A stretch of 64,000 nucleotides of DNA, taken from Treponemataceae bacterium (GTDB lineage Bacteria; Spirochaetota; Spirochaetia; Treponematales; Rectinemataceae). Shown piece by piece: positions 32,877-53,278 of the stretch. A program made the translations under genes and the position numbers. The notes beneath the pieces are model-generated. The model saw only the letters and a list, made by a program, of their open reading frames with translations. It was not told the origin of the DNA and searched no databases. How positions within the stretch are numbered: the stretch's first letter is position 1; every line of letters begins with the position of its first letter. The DNA lies in contig CAXXVZ010000003.1 of NCBI GenBank assembly GCA_963678065.2, positions 608,001-672,000 of the forward strand, written 5' to 3'.

Positions 32877-32959
32877 CGATTGTTTCGGGACTCCTGAAAT
32901 TGAACTTTTTTCGGTTTCCACATCATCATTTCGGGCCTATAAGGCCAGGAGGTAGGGGT

Positions 32960-34255: not shown

Positions 34256-34362
34256 AAAGCAGAGTTGTCCGGTATCATGCTGTTCAGTGAATCCATGATA
34301 TCGGACAGCTTCAAGAGACCATCCAGATGTTTTACTGATTGATTCCGGGCACAGGAGATTAT

Positions 34363-35265
34363 ATGAATAGGCGATATCGTAGGCATCTCTGGTGTTTCTG
34401 GCTGTTCATATTACCCTCGTTCGCTATCTATACTCTGCTTTGGGTTTCGCCCATGGTGTTCAGCCTGATAATAAGCTTCACCAGTTGGAGCGGTTTTTCG
34501 TTAAGTCAACTCAAATTTGTAGGACTACGCAATTATATTAACGCTTTCAATGACAAAATAGTGGGTCTTTCGATTTCGCACAATTTTATTTTTATGGGAC
34601 TTGGCGTCGTCCTCATACCAGCCTGCGCCTTTTTTGTCGCGTTATTGGTGGAAAAATTTGTAGTAAAAAAGGGATTCTTCCGAACAGTTCTATTCATACC
34701 GGCTTTTTTGCCGATGCTTCTCATTACCATTCTGTTCCGCTGGGTTTATAGCATCGACGGCGGGATGATCAATAGTCTTCTCGAAGTCATCGGACTTGGA
34801 GCGCTGAAGACCGATTTCCTTGGCAATTCCGATACGGCGATCTACGCGCTTTTCTTCATCGGTTTATGGAAAAACATGCCCTTTCACATGCTCATCCTCC
34901 TTTCGGGATTGCAGGGCATTCCGGCAGAGCTGGAAGAAACTGCTGTCATAGATGGTGCAAACTTTTGGCAGGTTGTCACGCAAGTAATAATTCCTATGTT
35001 GAAACCAATTTTCATCGTCGTTTATGGGCTCGTCATTATCGACGCCTTCAGGGTTTTCGATCTGGTATTTGTGACAACATCGGGAGGACCGGGATACTAT
35101 ACTACCGAAGTTCTCAACACATATATCTACCGTACCGCATTTGAGTCATTTCGCCTGGGATATTCAACCGCCCTTTCTACCATCAATATCCTCATGGTGT
35201 CCATTATTTCGCTGATATACTTCCGATTCACGGCAAAACAAAAAAAAGAGAGGGAAACCAAATGA
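34363..35265 (+). CDS. Carbohydrate ABC transporter permease
   Basis: FVGLRNY, LEETAVIDGA EAA motif, TSGGPG. Confidence 0.92.
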   Translation: MNRRYRRHLWCFWLFILPSFAIYTLLWVSPMVFSLIISFTSWSGFSLSQLKFVGLRNYINAFNDKIVGLSISHNFIFMGLGVVLIPACAFFVALLVEKFVVKKGFFRTVLFIPAFLPMLLITILFRWVYSIDGGMINSLLEVIGLGALKTDFLGNSDTAIYALFFIGLWKNMPFHMLILLSGLQGIPAELEETAVIDGANFWQVVTQVIIPMLKPIFIVVYGLVIIDAFRVFDLVFVTTSGGPGYYTTEVLNTYIYRTAFESFRLGYSTALSTINILMVSIISLIYFRFTAKQKKERETK

Positions 35266-36101
35266 CGAAAGGCAAACTCGGTTTTCCTGGAAAAATCGTT
35301 GTTTACGCGATTTTGCTGATCCTGGTATTTTGTGCGGTGTTCCCATTGCTGTGGATGTTCATTTCGTCCTTTAAAACAGAATCCGATTTTACCATAAATC
35401 GGTTCGGACTTCCGAAAATCTGGACTGTCGCCAATTATGTAAACTCATGGGGGCGCGGGCATTTCAGTCTTCTTTTCCGCAACAGTATTATTGTTGCCGC
35501 CTTTTCGTTGGTGTTGATGGTCGGATCGGCCTGTATGACTTCCTTTGCCTTTACACGATACCATTTCAAATTTTCGGGAAAAGTGCTTTTTTATTTTCTA
35601 GTCGGTCAAATGCTTTCAACTCAAACAGTGTTGATTCCTGTGTATTTGGAGCTTATCGTCCTGAAATTGAATAATACCCTGATAGGTTTGGCGTTGGTCT
35701 ATGTCGCCGCAGGGTTGCCCTTTGCGATTTTTCTGTTGCAGGGCTTCTTCATAATACTTCCCCACGAGCTTTATGAAGCGGCCGAGATAGACGGCTGTAC
35801 TGAATTAGGCATTTTTGCGAAAATTGCTTTACCCTTGGCAAAGCCGGGAATCGCTTCCGCTTTGATCATCCAGTTTTTGTTTGTCTGGAACGAATTCCCC
35901 CTGGCTCTTGTCGCCTTGAGTAGCGCAAACGTAATTACATTGCCTGTAGGAATATACCGTGTAGTCAATGATATGTATTCTTCCAGTCATACCTTGGCCT
36001 GCGCAGGACTCGCCATAACTGCCTTGCCAATCATCGCCGTTTACGCTTTTTTCCAGCGGCAAATACTTGAAGGAATTACCGCCGGCGCCATCAAGGGTTA
36101 A
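35262..36101 (+). CDS. Carbohydrate ABC transporter permease
   Basis: YEAAEIDGC, WNEF, ends GAIKG; ATGA overlap. Confidence 0.92.
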   Translation: MTKGKLGFPGKIVVYAILLILVFCAVFPLLWMFISSFKTESDFTINRFGLPKIWTVANYVNSWGRGHFSLLFRNSIIVAAFSLVLMVGSACMTSFAFTRYHFKFSGKVLFYFLVGQMLSTQTVLIPVYLELIVLKLNNTLIGLALVYVAAGLPFAIFLLQGFFIILPHELYEAAEIDGCTELGIFAKIALPLAKPGIASALIIQFLFVWNEFPLALVALSSANVITLPVGIYRVVNDMYSSSHTLACAGLAITALPIIAVYAFFQRQILEGITAGAIKG

Positions 36102-36135
36102 CCGCTGAAATGTTTCCGCTTACAAGGAGATCGCG

Positions 36136-38313
36136 ATGGAGGACAGACAAAATTCAGCCTATGTCAATTATAAACAGTACGGATTGCGCTTCGATCTTTC
36201 GAATAACTCCTTTTCCTGTTTTTACGGCTCACGCGGCTGCGTAGTAAAAAATGCAGGCGTTGAGGGAGTATATAAACACGGTAAAAAACTCTTTGATCTT
36301 GGAGATTACAGGAGCAGCAGTTTCAGAATTGAACAGGAGATGGACGCCTCGAAACTTGCGATTCATTTTGAAAATGGCCCGGAGGCGTTATCGGAATTGA
36401 CTTTGATTTTCGGCTTAAGCTCTGCAGGAATTCAACTGCGAATGGATACTCGCGGAGATATCGATTACCACTTCAATGGCTCCCTGCAGTGGGGAAAAGA
36501 TATGGAGCATGATACCTTCGCCGTCAACCTGAACAGAGACGGTCAGGATCTGCGCTGCGCGCTTGGGCCCGCTGCTTCCACTGTCGATAACGCTTTGTTT
36601 GATAGAAACGATGACGCTGCCCTTGAGTTTTTCGGAGCAGCGCCAGTACTCTTGCATTATGATTGGTTGGAAAAAACCTATAAGTTTGCCCTGAGCACAG
36701 TCGGGAACGACATAATTCGCGGCTTTGGCATACGAGTTCAAACCCGTGTATATGAAGGGCGCTTCAATATTCCATATTGTGCCATCAACAAGCAAAATAC
36801 CTTTCCGACACCGCCTGCAGGCTGGATGACCTGGTACGCGGTGCAATTTGACGCCAACGAAAATACCGTATTGGAAAATGCAAGATGGCAGGCTAAAAAC
36901 CTTAAGGATTTTGGAGCCAACACAATCTGGGTGGATTGGGAGTGGTTTCACAGTGATATGTCGGGAGTTGGTTATCCCGATACGGACTCATTTCACCCTG
37001 ATCCCCGGCGTTACCCGAACGGGCTCAAGCACGTGGCAGACGAAATCAAAAAACTTGGATTGATTCCCGCGTTGTGGGTCGGCTTCACGAATGATCCTAC
37101 CGAAAATGAACAAATCAAGAATAATCCCGATATTTTGCTGATTAGAAAACCAACGTGGTGCGGACAGTATTTTCTGGATGCAAGCAATCCCAAGTATCTG
37201 AAGGAATATATCCCCGCCGTCTTCCGGCAGGTGCTGGATTGGGGCTATGAAGCCCTCAAATGGGATTGCCTCCCCAATACGCTCGGTTATCTGGACCAGT
37301 GTCATGACAACATGTTTGATCCCGAAATAACTTCGGAAATGGCCCTTCGACAGGCTATCTCAGAGGCTCGTAAGGTTGTGGGCCCCGATTTTTACATGCT
37401 CTCGTGTTCGGGACGAACTTCCCGCGACATCACCATGGCGGTCGATATTTTCGACGCAGCCCGAATTGGCGGGGATATTTTCCAATGGTCTGAGTTTATC
37501 ACCCAATGTGTCCAACGGGCCATGAAATTCTACGCTTTGCACAATGTCGTGATTTACGATGATCCAGATAATGTCATCCTGCGCGAGAAATTCAACAGCT
37601 TCGATCAGGCACGTTCCAGGCTCTCTTTCGTGTCCCTGTTGGGCTTGCCCCTGACTTTGGGTGATTCCTTGCCGCAACTGCCCGAAGATCGAATCGAGCT
37701 TTTGCGACGCGGATTGCCGGCCGTTGACGCGCACCCCATGGATATCCGCGAGAACGTCCACAATTCCCGTATTGTCAAGGTGAACCTGGCCATAGAACGT
37801 CCCTTCGAACGCTGGAACGTCGTGGATGTGCTCAATCTCCTGGTTGAAGACGTTGATATTTCCCTTGACCTGTACACTGATCTTCATCTGCAAGAAGGCA
37901 AATATCTTGTGTACGATTACTGGAAAGATGCTTTTTTAGGAGAGTTTGACACAGCGATTTCCCTGCGTTTGGGCCCCTGCGCCTCTCGCGTTTTATGTGT
38001 GCGTTCCAAGCTCGATCGTCCGCAAATTCTCAGCACTTCCCGCCATATCACGCAGGGAGCCGTGGACATCCGGAGCATGGACTGGAACGAGAAGACAGGG
38101 ACATTATCCGTAACAAGCGATGTGATCGCCAAAGACCCCTATACCGTTACGCTTCATGTCCCTGAGAATCTGAGGCCCTTCAACGAAGGGAACCAAAGTT
38201 ACTCCCCGGAATACAAGAGCGTTGGGGCTTGTCTGTGGCGGTTTACGCTCAAGCCAAAGCAAACAGGAAGTCTCTCTTGGTCTGTGGCTTTCATGTGTAA
38301 ACATCCGGTCTGA
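36136..38313 (+). CDS. Glycoside hydrolase, clan GH-D (GH36/GH27, alpha-galactosidase-like)
   Basis: PPAGWMTWY, RYPNGLK, LKWD (nucleophile Asp), ARIGGD (acid/base), DDPD. Confidence 0.8.
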   Translation: MEDRQNSAYVNYKQYGLRFDLSNNSFSCFYGSRGCVVKNAGVEGVYKHGKKLFDLGDYRSSSFRIEQEMDASKLAIHFENGPEALSELTLIFGLSSAGIQLRMDTRGDIDYHFNGSLQWGKDMEHDTFAVNLNRDGQDLRCALGPAASTVDNALFDRNDDAALEFFGAAPVLLHYDWLEKTYKFALSTVGNDIIRGFGIRVQTRVYEGRFNIPYCAINKQNTFPTPPAGWMTWYAVQFDANENTVLENARWQAKNLKDFGANTIWVDWEWFHSDMSGVGYPDTDSFHPDPRRYPNGLKHVADEIKKLGLIPALWVGFTNDPTENEQIKNNPDILLIRKPTWCGQYFLDASNPKYLKEYIPAVFRQVLDWGYEALKWDCLPNTLGYLDQCHDNMFDPEITSEMALRQAISEARKVVGPDFYMLSCSGRTSRDITMAVDIFDAARIGGDIFQWSEFITQCVQRAMKFYALHNVVIYDDPDNVILREKFNSFDQARSRLSFVSLLGLPLTLGDSLPQLPEDRIELLRRGLPAVDAHPMDIRENVHNSRIVKVNLAIERPFERWNVVDVLNLLVEDVDISLDLYTDLHLQEGKYLVYDYWKDAFLGEFDTAISLRLGPCASRVLCVRSKLDRPQILSTSRHITQGAVDIRSMDWNEKTGTLSVTSDVIAKDPYTVTLHVPENLRPFNEGNQSYSPEYKSVGACLWRFTLKPKQTGSLSWSVAFMCKHPV

Positions 38314-38461
38314 ATTGTCCTAGAGATGACAAAAGGACTGCTCGCGATACCAGGAAAAACCTCAAGCGATTAAAGGCTCGGTCAGGCTCAGATTCGGAGA
38401 TGTAGCAACACACTACGTGGGTGATTGGCAGATCAGAAACGATAAAGCGAGGAGTGAACAC

Positions 38462-40207
38462 ATGGGCAAGTATGCTATTGAAATAGAAGCAAACGTTCCG
38501 CAGCATGGCGTCACATTGACATCGGGAATCTTCAAGACCGTATTTGATAACAACATTGCATATCTGAAGAGCTTGTCTCAGGACTCCATACTCTATTGGT
38601 TCAGGAAGAAAACTGGTCGTGACGCCCCCGGCGAACCGTATCGGGGACATTTCGAGGACAATATCAAAGGCCAAACTGCAGGGCTTTTTCTCATGGGCGC
38701 TGCGAACAGCCTGCGGTGGGTCGAAGACCCTGAACTCCGGAATCGGGTAACCCAGATAGTCGATGAGATCGAGCAGACTGCGGAACCTGATGGCTTCAAC
38801 CAGCCGATTCCAAAGAGCGCGTTCGGGACGATCGAATATCCCAATTACGTCCGAGTGTGGATGAATTACGGCCTCCTTGCGGCAAATCTGGTCGGAAACA
38901 GGAAGGCTCTCTCTCTGATGCGGGGGATGCAGACTTGGTTCAACCAGTGCGACGAGCGTGTGATCGCCAAAGATCTCGATCTCGGATACCAGGGAGTGAT
39001 CGCGAACACCACGGTCTACTTCACTGAAGTCGGACTGAAGGACGACATCGACGTCACGGTAGACTACTACCAGGAAAACTGGTGGTTAGCCCAGTTCATC
39101 TGCGGGAATCAGAATGCGGTTCACAAGCACCATCGTCCTCATGGGACCGAACTCGAAGCCATCATCGCATACATGGACCTTTACATCGCAACAGGGAAGC
39201 CGCTTTATCTCAATGCCGTCAACGGCGCATACAAGATGTTCAAGAATCAGTGGCAGCACACAGGCGGTGGCATCGTCGCCATAGAGCACGCAGAACTGGA
39301 GCCAGGTTGTCGATGGATCGATCCCGTGCACAAGTACAATGAATTGTGTTGTTCAGCGCATTGGATCTATTTAAATCAGCGTTACCATCAGTTGTTCCCG
39401 AACGTGGAGGAACATGTTGCGGAAATCGAGAAGTCGCTGTACAACATAGCTGTTGCGAATCAGGCCGGGAACGAACATATCAGGTATCACGCATTCCTTG
39501 ATATTCAGAAGGATGAGAATCGGAAAACCCCGGTCTCCTGCTGCGCCGGGCTTGGAACCAGACTCTACGGTTCCTTGCCGGAATTCCTCTACTCGGTCTG
39601 TGACCTTGGTCTCTATGTGGACATTTATTCCAGTTCCAAATTCGTGTTCGATCATCAGGGGCATCAGGTGAGAGTGAGCACCGAGACAGGGCAGCCACTC
39701 GTGGGTGCCGTGAGTATTCGCCTCGATGTCGATGCTCCTCTGGAAATGGTCCTCAGGCTGAGAATCCCGTCGTGGACTGCCGGGAAGGTGCCGGTTCTTG
39801 TCAATGGACAGGCGATCGCCCTTGGCACTCCCGGAACCTATCTGCCTGTCTCCCGCATGTGGAATCCTGGGGATACCGTTACCTTCGAACTGCCGATGGA
39901 AGTGCGCGCCGTCAGGTACTCTGGCATAGACATTGTCCCAGGAAAGGAACGATATGCCTTCGAGTACGGATCGCTCTTGCTCGCAGTGGTGGGGCCGCTG
40001 AATTTTGGCGGCCGGTACATTCTGATAGAACACGATCCTGCCCATCCCGATTCATGGCTCACGCCGATAGAAGGGAATCCCGGCCATTTTTCGATTCTGG
40101 ATATGCCGAGACATCAGATGATACCGTATTACGAAATCGACACTCAGATGTTTACCTGTTTCCCGGTTTTCGGACAGTATAGTTGTTCCTATGTCCAATT
40201 GATGTGA
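38462..40207 (+). CDS. GH127/GH146-like glycoside hydrolase (beta-L-arabinofuranosidase-like)
   Basis: NELCCSAHW and VSCCAG Zn/Cys motifs, EKSLYN, LRIPSW, LPM, YGSLLLA; AGGAG RBS. Confidence 0.8.
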   Translation: MGKYAIEIEANVPQHGVTLTSGIFKTVFDNNIAYLKSLSQDSILYWFRKKTGRDAPGEPYRGHFEDNIKGQTAGLFLMGAANSLRWVEDPELRNRVTQIVDEIEQTAEPDGFNQPIPKSAFGTIEYPNYVRVWMNYGLLAANLVGNRKALSLMRGMQTWFNQCDERVIAKDLDLGYQGVIANTTVYFTEVGLKDDIDVTVDYYQENWWLAQFICGNQNAVHKHHRPHGTELEAIIAYMDLYIATGKPLYLNAVNGAYKMFKNQWQHTGGGIVAIEHAELEPGCRWIDPVHKYNELCCSAHWIYLNQRYHQLFPNVEEHVAEIEKSLYNIAVANQAGNEHIRYHAFLDIQKDENRKTPVSCCAGLGTRLYGSLPEFLYSVCDLGLYVDIYSSSKFVFDHQGHQVRVSTETGQPLVGAVSIRLDVDAPLEMVLRLRIPSWTAGKVPVLVNGQAIALGTPGTYLPVSRMWNPGDTVTFELPMEVRAVRYSGIDIVPGKERYAFEYGSLLLAVVGPLNFGGRYILIEHDPAHPDSWLTPIEGNPGHFSILDMPRHQMIPYYEIDTQMFTCFPVFGQYSCSYVQLM

Positions 40208-40235
40208 TCTTTGCCCCGTCATGTTTAGGATAGAT

Positions 40236-41252
40236 TCACTGAAATCTTCGCGTAGATGATCGTACGACCAGTCTGGTTGGGATGACCTTTTCAACCGTAT
40301 CGACCGGTTCATTCCGAATGAGCTGGAGTAAAAGCTCGGCGCTCTGGCTTCCCAACCCAATGCTGTTTTGGGCCACCGTCGTCAATGGAGGATTCAATAG
40401 CGAAATAAAGTCAATGTCATCGAAACCGACGAGCGAGTACCGCTCAGGGAAAGCGATGGAACGTTGTTGCAGCAATGAAATCACACCCAGCATCATGATG
40501 TCGCTGAACGTAAAAATCGCCGAGAAGTCTATCTCTTCAAGCAACACAGCCATCATTTCATTGTAAGCGCTGTCTTTGTCAGGACGACAAAGTCGGATCA
40601 ACGCTGGGTCAAATTGCATCCCTGCCTCAGCCAAGGCCCTCTTGTACCCTTCCAGACGTTCCTGGGCACTGGAAATGTACTCTGGAGCATTCAGGAATAG
40701 TATCCGACGATGCCCCAAGCGTAACAGATGACTGACGGCATCGTAGGCCCCTTGCTTGTCGTCACTGATAACGCAGGGCACTTTGTGTCTGGAGAAATGT
40801 CGTCCCAAAAGGACAAAGGGAATACGCTTGGACATAAGAAAAACTATATCCTCGTCCTGAGCCTGAGATGGGGTCAGGATGATCCCCTTGGCATTCTGAT
40901 CAACAAGCAGTTCGACGGCCGCTCGTTCCTGCGCATAATTTTCGTCGGTGTTGAACAACATCATCGTATACCCGGCTTTCCGGATTGTCGTCTGAACTCC
41001 CTTAACGATTTGTCCAAAGAACGGATTTGCACTGTCGGTAGTGATCAAGCCGATGATACCTGAATTGCGCATACTTCGTCGCTGGCCTAGAGGATTGAAT
41101 TTATACCCCAACTCGTTGGCGACGTTGATAATCTCATCCCGTGTACCCTTGCTGATATCGTGCTTGTTGCTCAAAGCTTTGGATACAGAGTTAACGGAGA
41201 CGCCTACACGATCGGCGATGTCACGCATTGTTACGTTACGGTGGGATCTCAT
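40236..41252 (-). CDS. LacI family transcriptional regulator
   Basis: TMRDIADRVGVSVNSVSKAL HTH, NPFF, VGFDD, PPLTTV, LVVRSST. Start could be 41279. Confidence 0.93.
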   Translation of the reverse strand: MRSHRNVTMRDIADRVGVSVNSVSKALSNKHDISKGTRDEIINVANELGYKFNPLGQRRSMRNSGIIGLITTDSANPFFGQIVKGVQTTIRKAGYTMMLFNTDENYAQERAAVELLVDQNAKGIILTPSQAQDEDIVFLMSKRIPFVLLGRHFSRHKVPCVISDDKQGAYDAVSHLLRLGHRRILFLNAPEYISSAQERLEGYKRALAEAGMQFDPALIRLCRPDKDSAYNEMMAVLLEEIDFSAIFTFSDIMMLGVISLLQQRSIAFPERYSLVGFDDIDFISLLNPPLTTVAQNSIGLGSQSAELLLQLIRNEPVDTVEKVIPTRLVVRSSTRRFQ

Positions 41253-41473
41253 AGAGTCATTTTTACTATATTCACTCAATAAATATAAGTAGGTTTACTC
41301 GTTCTGAATGAGGACTGTCGGCGCAGACGATCTGACTGTGATAGAGTGTGTCGCATGAAAGTGGAAGGATCAACATACCGTCCTGCGAAGCCCGACTCGG
41401 CTCGCTCAGGCGCCAGGGTCCGACATCCTACCCACATGGCTGCAATCTGCTGCTATGTAAAGGAAGAGTTGTT

Positions 41474-42127
41474 ATGACTGTCCGGAAAATTGCGGGCTGG
41501 TTTTTCCGTTCGTCCCTCGGCATCATCGGATCGGCGGCTGCGGCGCTGGCGGCGGTCTTTGTGCTCGCATCGGGTATCGGCGTCTTCCCGGCCGCAGGGC
41601 TCGGCTTGGCGATTCTTGCTCTCGCGTTCTTCGTGTCCCTGTCGACGAAAAATGGCCTCCGGTTCCTATTGAACCGCAAGGACGGGGATGAGTCGGAGGC
41701 AGCAGGAAAGCTTCTGGCCGAAGCTGCGGAGGCCCGGAAAAGCATGGCAGCGTTGCGCCTCCCCGATCCAGCACTCTCAAAGGCGCGCGACAGGCTCGTC
41801 CTCGAAGCGGGAAAGTTCCTCGAGGATTCGGAGAGAAGGCTTTCCGACAGAAGAGTTGAGACACAGAGTCTTCCTCTCTATGATCCCGAAGCTATCCAGG
41901 CGATTCTCGACGCGCGCCCGGTTCTGGACGCTGTCCTCCACGAACTCGACGAAACCGCATCGGAACGCCGCTTCGGCGCCGAGGACGCCCACCCGGTCCA
42001 GAATCCGGTGGAGAGGGCAATTGCGGTCCTCGAGGACAAAACGCGTGATATACTCAGAGGCAGGGACCGCGTCCGCGGCCTTCCCGATCTTTCGGTACAG
42101 CTGGAAATAGAAGAGGAGCTGAAATGA
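41474..42127 (+). CDS. Hypothetical membrane protein (2 N-terminal TM helices + helical soluble domain)
   Basis: Hydrophobic hairpin followed by a charged helical region; AGGAAGAG RBS; ATGA overlap with next gene. Confidence 0.7.
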   Translation: MTVRKIAGWFFRSSLGIIGSAAAALAAVFVLASGIGVFPAAGLGLAILALAFFVSLSTKNGLRFLLNRKDGDESEAAGKLLAEAAEARKSMAALRLPDPALSKARDRLVLEAGKFLEDSERRLSDRRVETQSLPLYDPEAIQAILDARPVLDAVLHELDETASERRFGAEDAHPVQNPVERAIAVLEDKTRDILRGRDRVRGLPDLSVQLEIEEELK

Positions 42128-43836
42128 ATACGGAGTGCCTGCGGAAAATCCTTCCGGTCCTGTTCGCGACCTGCGCCCTATTCGCTGCGCAAGGCAGCCT
42201 CGGGGCGCTCGACACTTCACCAGTTTCGAGCGATATCACCATCGTCCTCGATCCGCGACTGGAAGCAACGATCACCCAGAGAGTCGAGTGGAAGGCTTCG
42301 GGCGGAAGCATGCATGGATTCTATTTCCAGGGCGAGCCCTTCGAACCCTCCTTCGATTCTTCCCTCTCGTATGCCGACATTCCGGGGGGGACACGACTCG
42401 GCCTCGACATAAAGAATCTCGGTAACGGGAAATACGACGTTCTCCTCGCAGGCGGCGCGGCCTTCTCGGGCACAGCCTTCTACACGCTCTCCTACAAAGC
42501 CCCGTTCGGGAAAGCCGGCCTCGTCGGCTCGACAAAGTCAGGGGAGGGCAAGGACCTCGTCTACTTCGACTATGGCCCCGTGCTCTGGGATTCCCCCCTG
42601 AAATCGCGCACAGTGCGGCTTGTCCTGCCGAGACGCGTCCAGGGCGGCACACTCTCCACCGAGGAGAAGAAAGCCATCCCCGTCCTGACGGAGGCCTCGG
42701 TCAACGAGGAAAATCGAATCGACTGGTACGGAAGCGCAGGCACGGGCGGATCATGGTGGCTCACCGGCCTCTTCTTCCAGGAAAACCTTCCAGCCCGAAA
42801 GACACAGAGGCTCAGACTCTATTTTCCCGCCGACTATCTCGAAATCCAACCTGAAGCCCTCGCCTCGGCAGGGGCTGGCTCCAAACCGCTCATTGGCGGA
42901 AACGGCGACGGAACCGTTGGGGATAGCACAAGAAGTCCACAAAGCGAAGCAGGGGGACCTCGGATAGTGCGTCCCGGTGATCGCTTCATCCCCGTCGTTC
43001 TTGCGGGCGCCTCGCTCGCGGCGGCCGGACTCTTCCTCTACACCCGTCGACTCAAATCCTTTCGTAAAAAGAAAGAGCTTGCAAAGACGATTTCCTGGGC
43101 CGGAGACGCATGGTCTCCCCCCCGCATCCTCGCCGGCAGCTACCAGATTCCCGGTAAAGTGGCGGAAAAGCTCCATCCGGTCGAGGTCGCCATCCTGATG
43201 GAGCTTCCCATGCCGCGGGTCGTGGCAATCATGCTGGAGGGCCTATCCCGCCAGGGCATCGCCGAAGTCATCAGCAGGGATCCACTGCAGATCAGAATTC
43301 TCGGCACAAAAAAGGCAGAAGCGGGTTTCGAGGAAGATTTCCTCGCGGCCTTCGACTCCGAAGGTCGCGTCCTCTCAGGGCTGCTCGCCGATTTTTTCGA
43401 AAAAACCATCGCAGGGCTCCAGGAGAAGACCTGGGATTGCGATCTGGAGGCCACGAAGGCGTATTACCGCGCCCTCATTTCGGATCTCGAGGAAAAAGAG
43501 CGGGCCACATCCGAAACGGAGCGGGAAAGTTTCATGGAGGGGCGCCGGAGCATCCCCTATTACCACTACTGGATGGGGTATTACATGCTTGGCCGCCACG
43601 ACAGCTACGCGGACATGCGCCTTCCCGATGGTTTCTCGGGCGGATACGGGGCCTTCATGAAGAGCGCCGCCTGTTTCTCGGGATGTTTCGCGGCCCCCGG
43701 TGGAACAGTGGATGCCTGCTACTCGGCCTGCCACAATGCCTGTCATGACGCGTGCCACTCCGCCTGTCATTCCGCCTGCCATTCGGCCTGTCACTCCGCC
43801 TGTCACTCGGCCTGCGTGTCCGGAGGCGGTCATTGA
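42124..43836 (+). CDS. DUF2207-like single-pass membrane protein with C-terminal (ACxx)9 Cys/His repeat tail
   Basis: Signal peptide; beta-rich domain; TM IPVVLAGASLAAAGLFLYT then RRLKSFRKKK; LHPVEVAILM...LEGLSRQG segment; ends ACYSACHNACHDACHSACHSACHSACHSACHSACVSGGGH. Confidence 0.85.
   Translation: MNTECLRKILPVLFATCALFAAQGSLGALDTSPVSSDITIVLDPRLEATITQRVEWKASGGSMHGFYFQGEPFEPSFDSSLSYADIPGGTRLGLDIKNLGNGKYDVLLAGGAAFSGTAFYTLSYKAPFGKAGLVGSTKSGEGKDLVYFDYGPVLWDSPLKSRTVRLVLPRRVQGGTLSTEEKKAIPVLTEASVNEENRIDWYGSAGTGGSWWLTGLFFQENLPARKTQRLRLYFPADYLEIQPEALASAGAGSKPLIGGNGDGTVGDSTRSPQSEAGGPRIVRPGDRFIPVVLAGASLAAAGLFLYTRRLKSFRKKKELAKTISWAGDAWSPPRILAGSYQIPGKVAEKLHPVEVAILMELPMPRVVAIMLEGLSRQGIAEVISRDPLQIRILGTKKAEAGFEEDFLAAFDSEGRVLSGLLADFFEKTIAGLQEKTWDCDLEATKAYYRALISDLEEKERATSETERESFMEGRRSIPYYHYWMGYYMLGRHDSYADMRLPDGFSGGYGAFMKSAACFSGCFAAPGGTVDACYSACHNACHDACHSACHSACHSACHSACHSACVSGGGH
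43714..43821 (+). repeat. 9 x 12-bp imperfect coding tandem repeat (GCS TGY NNN NNN)
   Basis: gcctgctactcg gcctgccacaat gcctgtcatgac gcgtgccactcc gcctgtcattcc gcctgccattcg gcctgtcactcc gcctgtcactcg gcctgcgtgtcc. Confidence 0.95.
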
Positions 43837-45248
43837 AGCTGGGCATGTTCCGCGTGAAAAATCCTGCGGCAAAGGCGGTTTCCTCCAGTGGGCGTGAAGA
43901 AGCGGATACCCTCGACGGACTCGAGGAGTACTACCGATCCATCCGCCCCTGGCTCCTGCCGAGGGAGGAAGACTCCACCCTCATCGTGCCGCCCAATCTC
44001 GTTTTCAAACTCGCGGGTTCAGCCTTCCCCCTCTTCTCCTGGCTCGATCGGGGAGGAAGGCTCCGCGATCTGCCCGGAATGGATTATGAGAAACGGGCCG
44101 ATCTCGAGGCCTTCTTCGGGGAGCTGCGTGCAGCCTACGAAGGCCGGGCTCCAGAGGGCTCGCGCGGATTCGGCAGAACTCCCTATGATTTCTCCTTCAC
44201 GGGCCTTCCCGTCCTTGGCGAACTCGCCCTGACATACCGCTGCAACGAGCGGTGTCGCTTCTGTTACGCCGCTTGCGGCGATGTCGCTTGCGGCGATACC
44301 CCCTCTCATCGCCCGGCCGGAGGAAGCACGGCCCAGAGTCCTGAGCGCGGGGAACTTTCCACGGAAGAGGCGAAGCGCGTCATCGAGATATTCAGGAACG
44401 AGGCCAAGATTCCCTTCTTTTCCTTCACAGGCGGCGAGCCACTTCTGCGCCAGGATCTCGAGGAGCTCGCGGACTATGCCCGAACTCTCGGACTCAGGAC
44501 AAACCTCATCACCAACGGGAGCCTCGCAAGTCCCGAGCGCGCTGCCTCCCTGTGGGCTTCGGGAATCGATACCGCCCAGGTCAGCCTCGAGAGTCCCGAC
44601 CCGGAACTCCACGACAATCTCTGCGGCTGCCGGGGCGCCTGGGAGAGGACAGTGGCCGGCATCAAAGCGCTCAAAGGGGCCGGCATCGCCGTCCAGACCA
44701 ACAGCACCCTCACGGCCCTCAACAGGGAGAGTCTTGCCTGCATGCCTGATTTCCTTGCAGGACTCGGAGTTTCCCGTTTTTCCATGAACCTCTTCATTCC
44801 CTCGGGGCGGGGGATAGACGACGGAGAACTCCTTGTCCGATATGCTGATACGGGAGATTTCGTCGAAGGGATACGAAAGAGGGCGAAGGCGGCCGGCCTC
44901 ACATTTTTCTGGTACAGCCCGACGCCGTACTGCATCTACAATCCTGTCGCGAAAGGGCTCGGCAACAAATCTTGCGCTGCCATGGACGGGCTCATCCATG
45001 TGAACCCCTACGGCGAGATCCTGCCTTGCTCATCCTGGCCCGAGAGCGTCGGAGACATACTCGTCGGGTCCTTCCGCGAAATCTGGTTCTCGGAGCGGGC
45101 GCGGTTTTTCAAACAGAAGCATTTCGCCCCCGTCGCCTGCGAAGGCTGTGGGAGCTTCGTCGCCTGCCAGGGGGCCTGTCCCCTCTATTTCAGAGTACTC
45201 GGAGAAACGGAAATCGAGCATGCCCGGGGAGGATTCCATGGAAAATGA
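43833..45248 (+). CDS. Radical SAM/SPASM domain protein with PqqD/RRE-like N-terminus
   Basis: CNERCRFC, FTGGEPLLR, ITNG, QVSLES; SPASM C-x12-G-x4-C and CEGCGSFVACQGAC. TTG start overlaps the upstream TGA with GGAGG at 43822 (alternative ATG at 43845). Confidence 0.92.
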   Translation: MKLGMFRVKNPAAKAVSSSGREEADTLDGLEEYYRSIRPWLLPREEDSTLIVPPNLVFKLAGSAFPLFSWLDRGGRLRDLPGMDYEKRADLEAFFGELRAAYEGRAPEGSRGFGRTPYDFSFTGLPVLGELALTYRCNERCRFCYAACGDVACGDTPSHRPAGGSTAQSPERGELSTEEAKRVIEIFRNEAKIPFFSFTGGEPLLRQDLEELADYARTLGLRTNLITNGSLASPERAASLWASGIDTAQVSLESPDPELHDNLCGCRGAWERTVAGIKALKGAGIAVQTNSTLTALNRESLACMPDFLAGLGVSRFSMNLFIPSGRGIDDGELLVRYADTGDFVEGIRKRAKAAGLTFFWYSPTPYCIYNPVAKGLGNKSCAAMDGLIHVNPYGEILPCSSWPESVGDILVGSFREIWFSERARFFKQKHFAPVACEGCGSFVACQGACPLYFRVLGETEIEHARGGFHGK

Positions 45249-46149
45249 TTTCAGGTTCTTCAGACTGGACACAGGAGCGAGGCTGGCGCTGGCCGGCTCG
45301 CTCTTCCTCGCCGGAGTGGCTGTCGGAATAGCCTCGGACAACCTCGTCGCCCCGGCCTTCGTCCTGTCCGCTGTGGGCTGGACCCCCCTCATGCTGAAGA
45401 AGATCACGAACAGACCCGACGATCAGGGGCTTGAGGAGTGGAGGGCCGTCTCGATGGCCGAAGTGGATAGGCTCGATGACGCGATGCGCGCGACCACGAA
45501 GACTATGGCCAAGAGCGGCGAAATCCTGATCAAGGTCTTCGGAACCTTCATCCTCGCCCTCATTCTCTTCGCGGCGATGGCGGGCTTCGTCGCGGGGAGG
45601 CGGGACATCGGATTTGTCCTCGCGGAAGCAGGAATATTTCTCGTTCCGGCCCTGCTGTTCGGGAGACTCGTCCTGCACAAGCCGAAGGAAATCGCCTTCA
45701 AAATGCCCTCGTTCCGCGCACTTTTGGGAGAAAGCATCCCCGCGAAAGTCACGGTCACACCGTATATTCGCTTCGACAAGGACTCGAAGGGCGCAGACGT
45801 GCCTGAAGATCTCCGGGTGATGTACGAAACGAAGCGCGGTCCCGCAGATTTTGTCGGCATCCAGGTACAGTGCGCGAAGAACAAGGGTCCAAACGGCGAA
45901 GTGCCTTATCTCTACGCAGTCATTCTGACAAAGGGTCGCTCGGGAGCGACATACCGGCAGGCCTCGAACCTCGAATCTCCGGGTTTCGTCGTGGAGACGG
46001 GCGGCGACGAAGAGTATGGCACCGTCGTCATACGCCAGGCGACTGAGGGTAAAGGCTACCACACGACAACATCCGACTGCGCGAAGCTGGGGCGGCTCTG
46101 TGGTCAGATTGCCGCCAGATTCGCCGCCGACCTTTCCCCCGATGCCTGA
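45238..46149 (+). CDS. Hypothetical membrane protein (~4 TM + C-terminal soluble domain)
   Basis: GGAGG RBS, 11-nt overlap with the rSAM gene, two hydrophobic hairpins. Confidence 0.75.
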   Translation: MENDFRFFRLDTGARLALAGSLFLAGVAVGIASDNLVAPAFVLSAVGWTPLMLKKITNRPDDQGLEEWRAVSMAEVDRLDDAMRATTKTMAKSGEILIKVFGTFILALILFAAMAGFVAGRRDIGFVLAEAGIFLVPALLFGRLVLHKPKEIAFKMPSFRALLGESIPAKVTVTPYIRFDKDSKGADVPEDLRVMYETKRGPADFVGIQVQCAKNKGPNGEVPYLYAVILTKGRSGATYRQASNLESPGFVVETGGDEEYGTVVIRQATEGKGYHTTTSDCAKLGRLCGQIAARFAADLSPDA

Positions 46150-46186: not shown

Positions 46187-47350
46187 TCAAGCCCAGCGGG
46201 AAAGGATCTGCCGGTAGCGCGACGCCACTTCTTCGATGACGTTTTCCCAGGATCTGCAGAGCGTGCGACGTGCCTGGGAGCCGGCTTCGGCGCGGAGTCC
46301 CGCATCGTTCAGAATGTCGATGATGCGCGCGGAGTATGCCTCTGTGTCGTTTTCCGCGAGGAATCCGTTTTCTCCGTCCCTGATCACCTCCGAGGCGGTG
46401 GAACCCTGTATGAGAAGGGCCGGCGTCCGGAAGGCGGCCGCCTCCCTGACCACGAGCGGCGCGTTGTCGTAGAGAGAAGGGAAGAGGAAGAGGTCGCCCC
46501 TGGCGTAGATCTGCTTGAGTATCTCCCTGTCGTAGACGACATCGTGGAAAAGTACCCGTTCCCTTATTCCGAGCTCGGTGCATATCTCCATGAGTCGCTC
46601 TTTCGCGTAGCCCTGACCAACGAATACCATCCGGAAATCGCGGATGGCCGAGGCGACCGCGGGCAGGGACCGGACGAGGAATTCCAGGTTTTTTTCGAGT
46701 ATGTGCTGGCCGACATAAAGTCCCACGGGTATCCCTTCCGGAAGTCCCAAAAGCCGGGCTCCCTTTTCCCGGAAAGGGGCGGGATCCTCCGGGGGAACTA
46801 TGTCGATGCCGTTCTCCACGACATCGTAAGGACCCTTGTACCCGTACAGGCGAAGCGTCTTCGCGACGGCTTCCTGAGGCACCCAGACATGGTCGACATG
46901 GTAATAATAGTCGACAATGCGTTTTATCTGGTCATCGACGATGTATTTGACGGGCATCGCGCGCAGAAGGTCATCCCGGTACTTGGAGTGAAAGGTTGTG
47001 ATGATTGGTATCCCTTTCTCTCTCGCTGTCCGGAGGGCGATGAGCCCCGCGCCGAAGGGCGAGTGGGAATGGACAAGATTGAGATCGCGTTTGCGGAGCA
47101 CGAGCTGAAGATTGAGGTCAAGGTCGGGCAAACCGATGCGGTATGGAGGTCGAACTATCGTCGGCACCGAGAGGAAGCGTATAACGGGGAAGCTCTCGCT
47201 GTCGATTGTGTTGGGAGCCGAGGGAGTGACGACGCAGGCCGGTCCGGATTTTCTGTTGAGCCAGTAGGCGTAATTCCTGACAGTGATAGTGACGCCATCC
47301 ATGATGGGGACATAGCCATCGCAGAACAGTCCGACAGAAATCTCTTTCAT
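46187..47350 (-). CDS. GT4 glycosyltransferase (diacylglycerol glucosyltransferase-like)
   Basis: FCDGYVPIMDGV, HSHSPF, TFHSKY, EKN, FLFPSLYDNAPLVVREAAA, DGENGFL. Confidence 0.9.
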   Translation of the reverse strand: MKEISVGLFCDGYVPIMDGVTITVRNYAYWLNRKSGPACVVTPSAPNTIDSESFPVIRFLSVPTIVRPPYRIGLPDLDLNLQLVLRKRDLNLVHSHSPFGAGLIALRTAREKGIPIITTFHSKYRDDLLRAMPVKYIVDDQIKRIVDYYYHVDHVWVPQEAVAKTLRLYGYKGPYDVVENGIDIVPPEDPAPFREKGARLLGLPEGIPVGLYVGQHILEKNLEFLVRSLPAVASAIRDFRMVFVGQGYAKERLMEICTELGIRERVLFHDVVYDREILKQIYARGDLFLFPSLYDNAPLVVREAAAFRTPALLIQGSTASEVIRDGENGFLAENDTEAYSARIIDILNDAGLRAEAGSQARRTLCRSWENVIEEVASRYRQILSRWA

Positions 47351-47485
47351 CTGTTAAGATATAATAAATAAAATGAACAAGGTCAACGGGAGGCCGGAGC
47401 CTGGATGACGCCGGAAGCAGCCTTGCCACGAAGGATCGCTGATGGTATACTCTTTCCCATCAAACTTATTTTCAGAGGTAAATCC

Positions 47486-47656
47486 ATGGCACATAAGATC
47501 ACCGATGCGTGCGTAAACTGCGGAGCTTGCGAGGGCGAGTGCCCCACCGGCGCAATCAGCGAGAAGAACGGCGCTCGCTGGATCGATCCCGGCACCTGCG
47601 TGGACTGCGGCGCCTGTGTTTCCGCCTGCCCCACCGAAGCCATCGTCGCCCCCTGA
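47486..47656 (+). CDS. fdx: 2[4Fe-4S] clostridial-type ferredoxin
   Basis: CVNCGACEGECP and CVDCGACVSACP; GAGG RBS; 56 aa. Confidence 0.95.
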   Translation: MAHKITDACVNCGACEGECPTGAISEKNGARWIDPGTCVDCGACVSACPTEAIVAP

Positions 47657-48942: not shown

Positions 48943-50433
48943 TCACATACCGAGACGGTACGCGACTTCGTTCCAGCGAATCTCCTTGCGCAACTCCTCC
49001 GGATCGGTCTTCGCGTCGATGAGGAGGAATTCGATTCCCGCCATCTCGGCGTAATCCCTGAGCCACTCCGTCTTGACCGCGCGGGAGTATCCGGTGTGGT
49101 GGGCGCCGCCCGCGATAATCCAGGATTCGGCCGCGCGGGCGAGGTCGGGCTTCGGAGCCCAGAGCACGCGGGCCACAGGCAGCTTCGGCATGGATTTTTC
49201 GACAGACAGGGCTTCGACCTCGTTCACGATCATCCTGAACCGGTTGCCCATGTCGATGATGGTGGCATTGAGCGCCTGACCAGGCTCCCCGGCGAAAACG
49301 AGACGCGCGGGGTCCGCCTTGCCGCCGATGCCGAGGGGATGGACCTCGAGCCTGACTTTGCCCGCAGCGATGCTCGGGCAGACTTCGAGCATGTGAGCCC
49401 CGAGAACCGCTTGCTTGCCGGGCTCGAAATGGTAGGTGTAATCTTCCATGAAAGACGTGCCGCCGGGCAGCCCAGCTGCCATGACCTTCATGGTCCTGAC
49501 GAGGGCGGCCGTCTTCCAGTCTCCCTCGCCGCCGAAGCCGTAGCCTTCGGCCATGAGGCGCTGGACGGCGAGGCCCGGGAGCTGGGGAAGCCCATGGAGA
49601 TCCTGGAAAGTGGTGGTGAAAGCGCAGAATCCGCCACCCGCGAGGAAGCCGCGCATGGCGAGCTCGATCCTGGCCTGTTCGCGAACCCGGACCGCGCCAG
49701 CGCCGGAGAGAGCATCGGAGGCGAGTTCGTAGGTCTCGGCATATTCGCGCACGAGGTTGTCCACATCGGATTCGGCGATCGCCGCGGCCGCGCGGACGAG
49801 ATCGCCCACGCCCCAGCCGTTTACGGACCATCCGAACTTGATCTGGGCTTCGACTTTGTCTCCCTCGGTGACCGCGACTTCGCGCATGTTGTCGCCGAAC
49901 CGGGCGACCTTCATCGTCTTTCCTTCAGCGAAGGCCGAGGCGGCGCGCATCCAGCCCGCTATTCTGTCGACGACCGCGCTTTCGCGCCAGAAGCCGACGA
50001 CGACCTTCCGCGGCAGGCGCATTCTCGCCCCTATGAAGCCGTGTTCGCGGTCTCCGTGCGCCGACTGATTGAGGTTCATGAAGTCCATGTCGATGCTGTC
50101 CCAGGGAATGTCGCGGTTGTACTGAGTGTGGAGGTGGCACAGCGGCTTCGCGAGCTCGGAGAATCCGGCGATCCACATCTTGGAGGGACTGAAGGTGTGC
50201 ATCCAGGTGATGATGCCCGCGCAAGCCGGATCGGAGTTGGCCTTCCTTATGAGATCGAGGATGGCGGCCGGACCTGTGAGGACGGACTTCCAGACGAGTC
50301 GACAGGGAAGCCTCAGAGCCAACTCCGCTACAATGGCAGAGGAATGGGCATCGACCTGTCGGAGAGTTTCGTCTCCGTACAGATGCTGGCTTCCAGTCAC
50401 AAACCAGAATTCATTCTTTGAAATGTCGATCAC
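48943..50433 (-). CDS. araA: L-arabinose isomerase
   Basis: [61 protein letters not shown]. Confidence 0.97.
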
Positions 50434-52139
50434 GCTGTCTCCTTCTCGACGAAAGCGCCGAGTGCAAGGTATCTCTTGTATAGTTTGTCGTACAGTTTTA
50501 CCCTGACTGGATCGGGCCTGTAGACTCTCTCCGCTCCCGCGCTCATCGATGCCTGTGCATCGAGCACGGTGGGGTAGAGTCCGGCCGCGGTCGCGGCGAA
50601 CATCGCGGCGCCAAGTGCGCAGGACTGGTCGCTCGAGGTGACAGAGATTTCCATGCCGAGGACATCCGCCGTCGTCTGCATGATGAAGGCGCTCTTTCTC
50701 GCGACGCCGCCGACAGCGGCCACCTTGCTGACTGGAACACCCTCGGAGCTGAGGCGCTCGACTATCGCCCGCGAGCCGAAAGCGGCGGCCTCGACGAGGG
50801 CTCGGTAGACGGCGGGGGCATCGGTGCCGAGGGAAAGTCCCGTGATGGCTCCGGTCAGGCTCTGATCGGCGTCCGGTGTGCGCCGGCCGTTGAGCCAGTC
50901 GAGGGCGAGAACGCCCGACGAGTTCGTCGGGCCTGTAGAGCCGGGCCCGAGGGCGAGGGCAGCCTTCTCCAGTGCGGGGAGGATAGCGTCCTCGAATCCT
51001 GCGGGCACGCCGGCGGCGCCCGGAATGTTGGCGAGAGGCCAGGCGAGGAGCCTCTTGAACCAGGCGAAGATGTCGCCGAAGGCCGACTGCCCGGCCTCGT
51101 AACCGATGAATCCGGGTATGACCGATCCGTCGACCTGTCCGCAGATGCCTGCGACGAGTTTCTCGCCTTCAAAGGCCACTCCCGCGCCAGCCTCTGAAGC
51201 GGCCGCAAGGCGGGGTCCGATGAGGATGTCGCAGGTGCTCGTCCCCATGATTTTGAGGAGGGTACCGGGCGACACATCTCCGCCGACAGCGCCGATGTGC
51301 GCGTCGAAGGCGCCGACCGACACGACGACAGACTCCGGAAGGCCAAGACGGGCGGCCCATTCGGGACAGAGGGTCCCGAAAACCTTGTCCGCCTCGAAGG
51401 TCTCTCTGCCAAGGCTCGGCGCGAGCTCGGCGAGGCGGGGATGAAGGGCGGAAAGAAAGTCCACCGGCGGATAGCCGCCCCAGGACGCGTGCCACATGGC
51501 CTTGTGCCCCGCCGCGCAGCGACTGCGCCTGATGGAGGGAATGTCCGTCACGCCTGCGAGGAGGGCCGGCATCCAGTCGCAGTGCTCTATGATGGTGGAG
51601 GCTGCAAAGGCGACTCCGTGGTTGGTCTCGACGACGCGCAGAGCCTTGGCCCAGAACCATTCCGAGGAATAGATGCCTCCCTCATAGCGGGTATAATCCC
51701 CATCCTCCCAGCTTCGAGCGAGTTCATTGATGCGCTGGGCCTGTGAAAGGCCTGTGTGGTCCTTCCAGAGGATGAACATGGCGTCGGGATCCTCGGCGAA
51801 GCGGGGGGAGAGGGCGAGTGGCACACCGTTCCCGTCCGCGAAACAGGGAGTCGAGCCAGTCGTGTCGATGCACAGAGCTCTGACCTTCTCGGCGGCGCCA
51901 GGACCTGCGGCCGCGAGGGCCCCTCCTACAGCGGCCTCGAGGCTCTCGATGTAATCCAAAGGATGCTGGCGGAAGCGATTGGAGGCGGGGTCGCAGAACA
52001 TGCCGCGCGCCCAGCGGGAATAGGCGCTCACGCCGCTGCCTTTTTCGCTGCCATCCGCCGCGTCGACGACGAGGACCCGGACCGAGTCGGTCCCGTAATC
52101 CACGCCGAGAACATAGTCTCGGTCTTTGGGAATGCTCAT
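50430..52139 (-). CDS. araB: Ribulokinase
   Basis: [47 protein letters not shown]. Confidence 0.95.
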
Positions 52140-53221
52140 GGTCTCTCCTTCTTGGCCAAGGATGCTGTTCCCGCGGACCGATAGGGTTCGGCGCAGGGAG
52201 CGTTTTCCTTGAAAAACACATCTATCGGCAAAAGCCTCTCATTTTCGACGGGGGAACCGAAGGCGGCTGTGCGGAAAAGAAGCTCGAGGCCTATCCGGGT
52301 CTGCTCTTCAGGTCTCTGGGAAAGGACACAGTCGATTCTGCCTTCGCAGAGAGCTCTGTAGTTCTCGGGGACAAGATCCCACGACACGAGGGCGCAGGCA
52401 GCCTTGCGACCTTCGTCCGAAAGCCAGTGGCCGACATGGTGGCCACTGGCGTTGACGACGAGGATGCCGGAAATATCGTTTTCGCGGGCGAAGAGTCCTT
52501 CCATGAACTCGTGGCGGGAATCCGAGTCGTCGATCCGGCGGCAATCTCCGACGACGGACAGGCGCCCGCGGTCGGAAAGAGCTGCGAGGAAACCCTCGAT
52601 CCTGCGGCCGATATGGATATCTTCGCCGTGCGCGTTGACGGCGGCGAGAATTCCGCGAGGAGCAAGAAGGCAGAGTAGCTTCCCTGCGAGGTATCCGCTC
52701 CGGAACGCATCCTGATAGATCGAGAACCGGGGTCTTCGCCCTTCGATCCATCCATCGAAGAATGCGTAGGGAAGTTCCGGATCGAGGCAATCGAGGAATC
52801 CCGCGAAGTCCTCGGGCAATACGGGGGCGAGCAGAAGTCCGTCTCCGGGCTCCGCCGCCACGGAGGCGAGAATGTTGCGACAGGCGGCTCTGTCGTAGCG
52901 GTCAAAGCTGTCCACGGTGACGGAGACACGGTAGGCCGCGAGTTCTTCGACCGCCCTGTCCACTCCCTCGCGGCAGAGCTTCCAGTATCCCGAATCCTGA
53001 CTGTCTTCGGGCATGACGACACGGAAGCGCCAGTCTTTTCCGAGAGAGAGTTGGCGAGCGATGAGATCGGGCTTGTAATCTCCGTCCCGGGCTATGGTTT
53101 CGATCTTCCTGCGCGTTTCATCCGAGACGCCGCCTCTGTCGTGGAGGACGCGGTCCACAGTGCCGATGGAGACCCCGGCGAGGCGGGCGATTTCCTTCAC
53201 TGTCAGTTTTACCTGTGACAC
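52136..53221 (-). CDS. LacI family regulator of the ara operon
   Basis: TVKEIARLAGVSIGTVDRVLHDRG HTH; overlaps araB. Start approximate. Confidence 0.9.
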   Translation of the reverse strand: MSQVKLTVKEIARLAGVSIGTVDRVLHDRGGVSDETRRKIETIARDGDYKPDLIARQLSLGKDWRFRVVMPEDSQDSGYWKLCREGVDRAVEELAAYRVSVTVDSFDRYDRAACRNILASVAAEPGDGLLLAPVLPEDFAGFLDCLDPELPYAFFDGWIEGRRPRFSIYQDAFRSGYLAGKLLCLLAPRGILAAVNAHGEDIHIGRRIEGFLAALSDRGRLSVVGDCRRIDDSDSRHEFMEGLFARENDISGILVVNASGHHVGHWLSDEGRKAACALVSWDLVPENYRALCEGRIDCVLSQRPEEQTRIGLELLFRTAAFGSPVENERLLPIDVFFKENAPCAEPYRSAGTASLAKKERP

Positions 53222-53226
53222 GTTCG

Positions 53227-53278
53227 CTCCGTGAACGTACACGAGAGGAGATTGAAAGCACCGTGTACGTTCACGGAG
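53227..53278. promoter_or_regulatory. Pair of operator-like palindromes (17-bp perfect inverted repeat)
   Basis: CTCCGTGAACGTACACG (53227-53243) and CGTGTACGTTCACGGAG (53262-53278). Confidence 0.7.

Follow-up and report, generated by a model that had tools for sequence, protein, structure and literature searches.

We analysed a 64,000-nucleotide (nt) stretch of DNA from a Treponemataceae bacterium, referred to below as the window; its relatives put the host within the Spirochaetia. Four same-direction open reading frames (ORFs) on its + strand, spanning 41474-46149, place a radical S-adenosylmethionine (SAM)/SPASM enzyme next to a membrane protein that ends in a Cys/His repeat. An earlier note on this DNA had singled out four co-oriented genes, and we confirm them at these positions. 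The enzyme also carries an RRE, the recognition element of maturases of peptides made by the ribosome and modified after translation (RiPPs). The genes and the segments central to the argument are as follows.

41474..42127, + strand: gene 1, 217 amino acids (aa); N-terminal hydrophobic stretch with about two transmembrane (TM) helices, polar C-terminal part
42124..43836, + strand: gene 2, DUF2207-like membrane protein of type I, 570 aa, ending in the Cys/His tail
43639..43686, + strand: pre-tail segment within gene 2, candidate RRE-binding leader; conserved Tyr508 to Phe522 and two further Cys
43714..43833, + strand: Cys/His tail of gene 2, predicted substrate; nine Ala-Cys-x-x units, then GGGH
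43833..45248, + strand: gene 3, RRE, radical SAM and SPASM enzyme; 467 aa if counted from the ATG at 43845
45238..46149, + strand: gene 4, 303 aa; third gene of the core; about four TM segments, with the C-terminal domain soluble

The earlier note described all four genes as overlapping. This holds for genes 1 and 2 (4 nt) and genes 3 and 4 (11 nt), whereas genes 2 and 3 overlap solely if gene 3 begins at a TTG; the ATG at 43845 gives no overlap. Since the junction is -1 or -4 in most homologues, the start is probably the in-frame TTG at 43833, which overlaps the gene 2 stop and has GGAGG just upstream. Residue numbers for gene 3 are nevertheless counted from the ATG. The description as a module of four genes likewise stands in part: four ORFs are the arrangement of the spirochaete-type clade, but homologues of gene 1 occur at 25 of 95 loci, every one of that clade. 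Homologues of gene 4 occur at 37 of the 95 loci, with a divergent cluster at 4 more. Judged from gene content, the core of the system is genes 2-4, and gene 1 is a spirochaete-specific accessory. A weak match of gene 1 to PF10112 (XpaC-like), seen in 1 of 19 members, was not accepted. Gene 4 has no consistent Pfam or PDB-profile match and its Atlas clusters are all unnamed. A promoter and terminator scan of the locus stayed at chance level. RNA contigs from the lake metatranscriptomes of one study cover all four genes in pieces and leave the 2 kb upstream uncovered; because such contigs cannot prove transcription, they lend weak support to expression of the cassette.

Gene 2 encodes, as originally described, a 570-aa single-pass membrane protein ending in (ACxx)9-GGGH. 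A signal peptide is followed by an ectodomain (residues ~29-236), a TM segment (~288-308), a cytoplasmic alpha/beta domain (~345-500) and the tail. The structure model (mean predicted local distance difference test score, pLDDT, 82.7) has the same order: signal helix, beta-sandwich ectodomain, single TM helix, folded domain, tail. The modelled ectodomain matches ribophorin I/Ost1 (Z 14.6, root mean square deviation (rmsd) 2.7, 175 residues aligned) and also the N-domains of M1 aminopeptidases, a likeness that, as modelled, is one of common fold and says nothing of function. The resemblance of residues 349-499 to GOLPH3/Vps74 (Z 6.1 and 5.4, rmsd ~5) falls below the level of trust. All of the 35 homologues, out of 59, in which topology could be anchored have a single TM segment preceding the inner domain (a later hydrophobic stretch is seen in 3), and together they carry 59 Lys/Arg before the TM segment against 159 after it. 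From hydropathy, this positive-inside skew and the model, the tail is predicted to be cytoplasmic, where it could be within reach of an Fe-S enzyme. The evidence on kinship to DUF2207 is mixed. PF09972 (DUF2207) weakly matches 20 of the 59 homologues at E<=0.05 and PF20990 weakly matches 2, TIGR04222 matches 10 at E<=0.05, and Atlas neighbours of gene 2 carry the DUF2207 label, but the window's own protein has no Pfam match and scores 13.7 bits against TIGR04222, short of the cut-off of 43. One of the 59 tailed homologues has a strong TPM-domain match (E 1e-34), which suggests that ectodomains are exchangeable; several others are 700-930 aa long and carry extra domains.

The tail reads ACYS-ACHN-ACHD-(ACHS)5-ACVS, nine units that occupy 43714-43821 and precede GGGH. 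In 19 loci collected by protein homology, its last 28 residues are 98% identical at the amino-acid level, compared with 33-68% by region for the body of gene 2 (58-68% in the folded domains), while 49% of the codons for identical tail residues are changed synonymously. The conservation extends upstream in weaker form, with residues 506-530 being 67% identical and residues 451-505 being 33% identical. To judge by these substitution patterns, the tail is under strong purifying selection. The last seven 12-nt repeat units all differ in DNA sequence, and three RNA contigs that span both the repeat and the junction between genes 2 and 3 show 0-1 differences and zero gaps; together these findings rule out both slippage and misassembly. 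In P0012, P0017, P0141 and P0142 the tail is frameshifted, which was put down to probable sequencing errors. In the 59 tailed proteins Ala precedes Cys at 543 tail positions.

Tail and enzyme occur together. Among 41 related genomes, 25 have both genes, 16 have neither and none has just one (in one genome, G027, the SPASM match is weak, 9e-49); the two genes are adjacent on one contig in 24 of the 25 and separated by a contig break in the other. An enzyme-first search found the tailed gene at 4 of 5 further spirochaete loci, the fifth ending at a contig edge. A tail-first scan of GTDB gave at least 120 matches, 80 with flanks and 40 without. Among the matches listed, the motif forms the C-terminal tail of a homologue at 66 of the 80 flanked loci, and the record titles of these 66 carry ~15 phylum-level labels; the other 14 are unrelated ORFs and were dropped. 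The enzyme lies in the locus of 58 of these 66, divergently upstream in 3 of the 58 (the Thorarchaeota type). As for the other eight, contig ends truncate 3, another is an additional copy in a pair-bearing genome, and 4 have an enzyme of the same clade elsewhere in the genome (E ~1e-170); an enzyme search in the genome of one locus cut by a contig end gave no match. Distances between enzymes and between membrane-protein inner domains correlate over 80 loci, four duplicate or double-copy loci being left out (Spearman rho 0.80), a value inflated by shared ancestry, which counts against leaning on it. Some genomes have two tailed proteins for a single enzyme (L042; L026 and L037; L150 and L152). 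A cultured species, Desulfobulbus alkaliphilus DSM 24258, is among the carriers of the cassette (locus L091). A Myxococcales-labelled contig (L066) carries a four-gene spirochaete-type cassette nested among spirochaete sequences, either through mis-binning or through transfer.

A larger sister family pairs a tail of the form (Cys-Ala)n-GGGR with a related enzyme alongside. Of 8000 clusters scored, 4595 belong to it at E<=0.001, a size possibly inflated by low complexity. All 80 of 80 sister motifs are C-terminal, and the related enzyme is present at 55 of 56 metagenome loci having at least 1.5 kb downstream and at 12 of 12 Chloroflexota loci. The expectation that tailed homologues would neighbour this enzyme clade was thus borne out for the (ACHS)n tails and, with the related enzyme, for the sister tails. 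In Asgard archaea a homologue is found in 45 of 151 genomes, with both tail types present, and in 5 of 5 genomes checked where the tailed gene has no adjacent enzyme the enzyme is encoded elsewhere. By these homology searches the cassette is widespread in bacteria and Asgard archaea. The conservation of the tail, the exact co-occurrence and the enzyme neighbours at both ACHS and sister loci indicate that the tail is very probably the substrate of the enzyme. The earlier proposal, in which the enzyme targets a core peptide that forms the cytoplasmic end of an envelope protein, has thus survived the tests of co-occurrence, of an RRE and of membership in known families among the models listed.

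The radical SAM and SPASM domains named earlier are both found in gene 3, and the RRE is an addition to that description. PF04055 scores 94.5 bits, with a CX3CX2C motif at C133/C137/C140 that is invariant in 48 members, and PF13186 (SPASM) scores 33.1 bits, above its cut-off of 21.5. Seven auxiliary Cys are invariant (363, 377, 395, 432, 435, 441, 445), a count from which one Fe ligand would be non-Cys. For the N-terminal RRE, PF05402 matches 24 of the 48 members at E<=0.1 (best 1.8e-10), the window's own protein not being among them; weak profile matches to three solved RREs (TfuB1, PqqD and TbiB1) were also obtained. In the enzyme model (pLDDT 87.8) the N-terminus forms three strands followed by helices, an RRE-like order. 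This region is included in the structural alignments to the sactisynthase SkfB (from residue 35; Z 27.6, rmsd 3.4, 336 aligned) and to SuiB (from residue 28).

No curated family cut-off is reached by the enzyme among the NCBIfam models listed (25 families of 68/90, the scope of the family comparisons below). The highest scores go to AhbD (138 bits) and NirJ2 (133 bits), about a quarter of the cut-off of 500, so by score the enzyme falls neither with the AhbD/NirJ heme enzymes nor, among the models listed, in a known non-peptide family, a case that the earlier note had allowed for. StsB gives 83 bits against 625. Tested directly, TIGR04463 (Crp) gives 20-31 bits against 525, and TIGR04115, the CXXX-repeat maturase, does not match the locus of the enzyme at E<=0.001 in any of 5 genomes. 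The profile models suggested at the outset gave a mixed outcome, with SPASM matched, PF05402 matched in half of the 48 members, TIGR04117 weakly so in 10 of 59 tailed homologues and TIGR04115 unmatched. Because AhbD and NirJ2 lead the ranking, one may ask whether the tail binds metal or a cofactor as an unmodified ladder, the enzyme's substrate being a small molecule, such as a tetrapyrrole, or another partner. Cys/His ladders can bind metal, and the 375 overlapping CX3CH motifs in the 59 tails recall non-canonical heme-c sites. But the canonical CXXCH motif occurs 0 times in those tails, the tail is predicted to be cytoplasmic, the RRE points to a peptide substrate and heme genes recur in no neighbour cluster of 95 loci; with family scores so far below the cut-offs as well, we consider this reading improbable. 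Judged by sequence comparison, then, the cassette is real, conserved and uncharacterised, resembles a maturase that depends on an RRE and has its core carried by a protein, and lies in none of the named families tested.

What the enzyme would do to the tail is suggested by its nearest relatives. SkfB is its best solved match both by sequence and by structure. Six residues of StsB face the active site (Y, T, I, S, K, L; PMC10288494), and with positions mapped by motif the corresponding Y141, T195, I222 and S247 are identical to the first four; agreement is 4/6 with StsB, 3/6 with SkfB and 1/6 with CteB. Ala-Cys is, moreover, the sole element common to (ACHS)n and (Cys-Ala)n tails. These three observations favour Cys-to-Ala thioethers, which, by analogy, we take as the best guess and a fairly probable one if the tail is indeed the substrate. 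A different radical reaction on the tail (Cys oxidised to a thioaldehyde or formylglycine as by anSME, an epimerisation, or a new reaction) appears unlikely. The failure to reach any family cut-off checked and the atypical layout of the auxiliary Cys would both suit it, and the SPASM region alone scores best in the PDB with anSME (E 6e-6); yet the structural match to anSME begins at residue 121, leaving it without an RRE, and the best match of the whole enzyme is SkfB.

The His residues of the tail raise a further possibility. The second residue after His is Ala at 477 tail positions of the 59 proteins, with a variable residue between, and each His-x-Ala could carry a His-C2 to Ala-Cbeta cyclophane, as in triceptides, leaving the Cys free for metal. 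HaaB and ScaB are described as making the identical link on His-Ala-Ala (PMC11002830). Against such cyclophanes, which we rate about as unlikely as the other radical reactions, the sister family has a related enzyme whose Cys pattern is identical but whose partner tail lacks His, and no triceptide (3-CyFE) maturase model is among the families listed for the enzyme.

Our favoured reading, held with slightly more confidence than doubt, is that an RRE-radical SAM-SPASM enzyme thioether-cross-links a cytoplasmic tail that stays on its membrane protein. The RRE would grip the segment before the repeat, and the enzyme would install several Cys-to-Ala cross-links in place; the modified tail would remain part of the membrane protein, with no peptide released. 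Cross-linking might stiffen the tail into a His-lined module for docking or metal binding, lying on the inner face of a complex formed with the 4-TM protein for envelope surveillance. This is the least certain step, and we regard it as speculative; it is suggested by kinship to DUF2207, one member of which affects stress tolerance in S. mutans, where the mutant is stress-sensitive (PMC10457818), and by membrane and zinc-ribbon neighbours.

Released peptides are the usual output of RRE-dependent maturases, and gene 2 could be a tethered precursor from which an unlinked protease cleaves the modified tail, to act as a small peptide. Tail fragments have been scored as precursors by RODEO, and HxsA is reported to be processed following radical SAM action (PMC13128918). 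However, a peptidase or peptide exporter recurs nowhere among the neighbour clusters of 95 loci, the body of some 500 aa is itself conserved, and the predicted location of the tail is cytoplasmic, so release seems improbable. A conventional short precursor was likewise sought: the 38-52 kb interval of the window holds no short Cys-rich candidate beyond a ferredoxin and two unconvincing ORFs, and no convincing separate precursor was found in the window or genome, which bears out the earlier observation that precursor, peptidase and exporter are absent nearby.

Several points weigh against in-place thioether formation. His-x-Ala is as invariant as Ala-Cys and suits a different known chemistry, and the tail is modelled with low confidence (pLDDT below 50). 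The top NCBIfam scorers are heme-biosynthesis enzymes. At S396 and S397, the fifth and sixth positions of the profile, the enzyme is unlike StsB, SkfB and CteB, sister enzymes having Q-S, and the shared Y/T/I/S may be common in this enzyme subgroup. The Cys layout is unlike that of CrpC and CteB in that the C-terminal Cys of the second auxiliary cluster (AuxII) is missing and an extra Cys363 lies upstream; the open Fe site may thus be elsewhere than on the first auxiliary cluster (AuxI). The tail could also still be released by a distant protease.

Radical SAM modification of whole proteins is, to our knowledge, confined to a handful of cases, all soluble or exported. The earlier note knew of no characterised example; for the cassette this stands in the literature searched, but there are close precedents in CrpC/CrpA, HxsBC/HxsA and the MNIO-TIGR04222 pairing. 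In CrpC/CrpA of Methanococcus voltae (TIGR04463), thioethers were shown on a 28.8 kDa Cys-repeat protein (PMC13692751), which by analogy is a precedent for thioether formation on a whole protein. As here, the neighbour of an RRE-radical SAM-SPASM enzyme with seven auxiliary Cys is a large protein whose C-terminal part repeats a Cys motif. The enzyme described here differs from CrpC in scoring 20 bits against the Crp cut-off of 525 and in the arrangement of its auxiliary Cys, and CrpA, unlike gene 2, has an N-terminal leader and C-X-X-Q/D motifs; the main text of PMC13692751 does not use the word "membrane". The same paper recounts RRE-dependent thioether formation on a protein subunit by QhpD/QhpC. 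In that pair the links join Cys to Asp/Glu within QhpC, a small subunit of an enzyme, and such an enzyme context is absent here. HXS, an anti-phage system (HxsA/B/C/D), involves radical SAM maturation of His repeats on a full-length envelope effector (PMC13128918). Like our cassette, it combines radical SAM chemistry with a full-length envelope protein that bears a repeat containing His, but it is described there with two enzymes plus HxsD, His-x-Ser repeats and a periplasmic effector, whereas here there is one enzyme per locus, His-x-Ala-Cys, a membrane anchor and no recurring small partner. A defence system was considered and rejected: PADLOC gave generic viperin matches for the enzyme, coiled-coil/zinc-ribbon noise for two neighbours and no match for the non-enzyme genes of the cassette, and no defence genes recur among the neighbours of cassette loci.

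MNIO enzymes have been proposed in silico to modify the Cys-rich C-terminal tails of TIGR04222 membrane proteins (PMC12452194), and gene 2 weakly matches that family. The parallel is a RiPP-type enzyme acting on a Cys-rich membrane-protein tail; the enzyme class is different, and the MNIO tails are reported as low-complexity, variable and predicted periplasmic, whereas the tail here is invariant and predicted cytoplasmic. DUF2207 proteins resemble gene 2 through the weak matches and labels noted above, while gene 2 differs in its single TM segment and in having a Cys/His tail with a dedicated enzyme.

The sactisynthases SkfB and StsB, the closest by structure and active site, act on short peptides, whereas the core here ends a 570-aa membrane protein; the alternating CxCxC core of StsA resembles the sister (Cys-Ala)n tail. 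The short leader-core precursor with peptidase or exporter of sactipeptide and ranthipeptide systems was not found. CXXX-repeat systems (TIGR04115/TIGR04117) share the Cys at every fourth residue, and TIGR04117 reaches 3e-4 at best in our homologues, but their maturase is not matched and their known targets are short peptides. Triceptide substrates share an aromatic-x-aliphatic motif, here His-x-Ala. In the 2023 supplement to PMC10288494, three (Cys-Ala)-tail fragments form precursor group 40 and one ACHS-tail fragment is a singleton, all labelled 'Other Uncharacterized'; the pairing of enzyme and tail had therefore already been caught automatically, as short peptides. A description of the membrane-tethered cassette was not found in literature searches, whose coverage left out most subscription journals.

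Loci beyond the spirochaetes vary in composition. Sister cassettes open with a small membrane protein that has a zinc ribbon at its end (L140:667-1128 and 64 other loci), and in a Chloroflexota/Myxococcota ACHS subgroup a coiled-coil protein and a TM-zinc-ribbon protein lie downstream instead (L016:7837-8325; L043:803-2038). The two tail types, with a separate enzyme for each, occur side by side in one genome of the Chloroflexota (G205). At Thorarchaeota-type loci (L019, L020, L051, L280-L291) the enzyme is upstream and divergent with a conserved 130-150-aa ORF in between, and the tails are interrupted (CVSHD, CVCHS). Many (Cys-Ala)-tail loci encode a second RRE-bearing enzyme paralogue without CX3CX2C, a probable pseudo-enzyme, at the following positions.

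L174:4918-6150: CX3CX2C-less paralogue
L216:1000-2169: CX3CX2C-less paralogue
L225:3461-4744: CX3CX2C-less paralogue
L183, L188, L193, L194, L227, L237, L293: further loci with such a paralogue

Within the window, the cassette is preceded by what appears to be a lower-GC (45-53%) sugar-utilisation block at 32900-41279, where the sequence suggests an ABC transporter, a LacI-type regulator and a pair of probable glycoside hydrolases. Downstream, with names likewise taken from sequence, are a glycosyltransferase (46187-47350, - strand), a ferredoxin (47405-47656, + strand), arabinose isomerase/ribulokinase genes with a regulator (48943-53242, - strand) and the large subunit of carbamoyl-phosphate synthase (54676-58032, - strand), none of which recurs alongside the cassette.

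A broader picture, which we offer tentatively, is of an ancient system of bacteria and Asgard archaea in which thioethers, up to nine to eleven of them, are placed by a dedicated radical SAM enzyme on the cytoplasmic tail of an intact membrane receptor, so that a RiPP core becomes a permanent membrane-anchored signalling or metal-sensing module; (ACHS)n and (CA)n would be tail codes able to replace one another, the latter with a cluster-less pseudo-enzyme as regulator. The cassette would flag a blind spot in RiPP mining, namely cores hidden at the ends of large genes. The substrate is short, near-invariant and easily expressed, which makes the chemistry directly testable, and the enzyme may offer a means of stapling a dense Cys repeat. 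If the favoured reading is true, it would provide a radical SAM-modified integral membrane protein present in many phyla and both prokaryotic domains, and the first biochemical handle on a branch of DUF2207-like envelope proteins.

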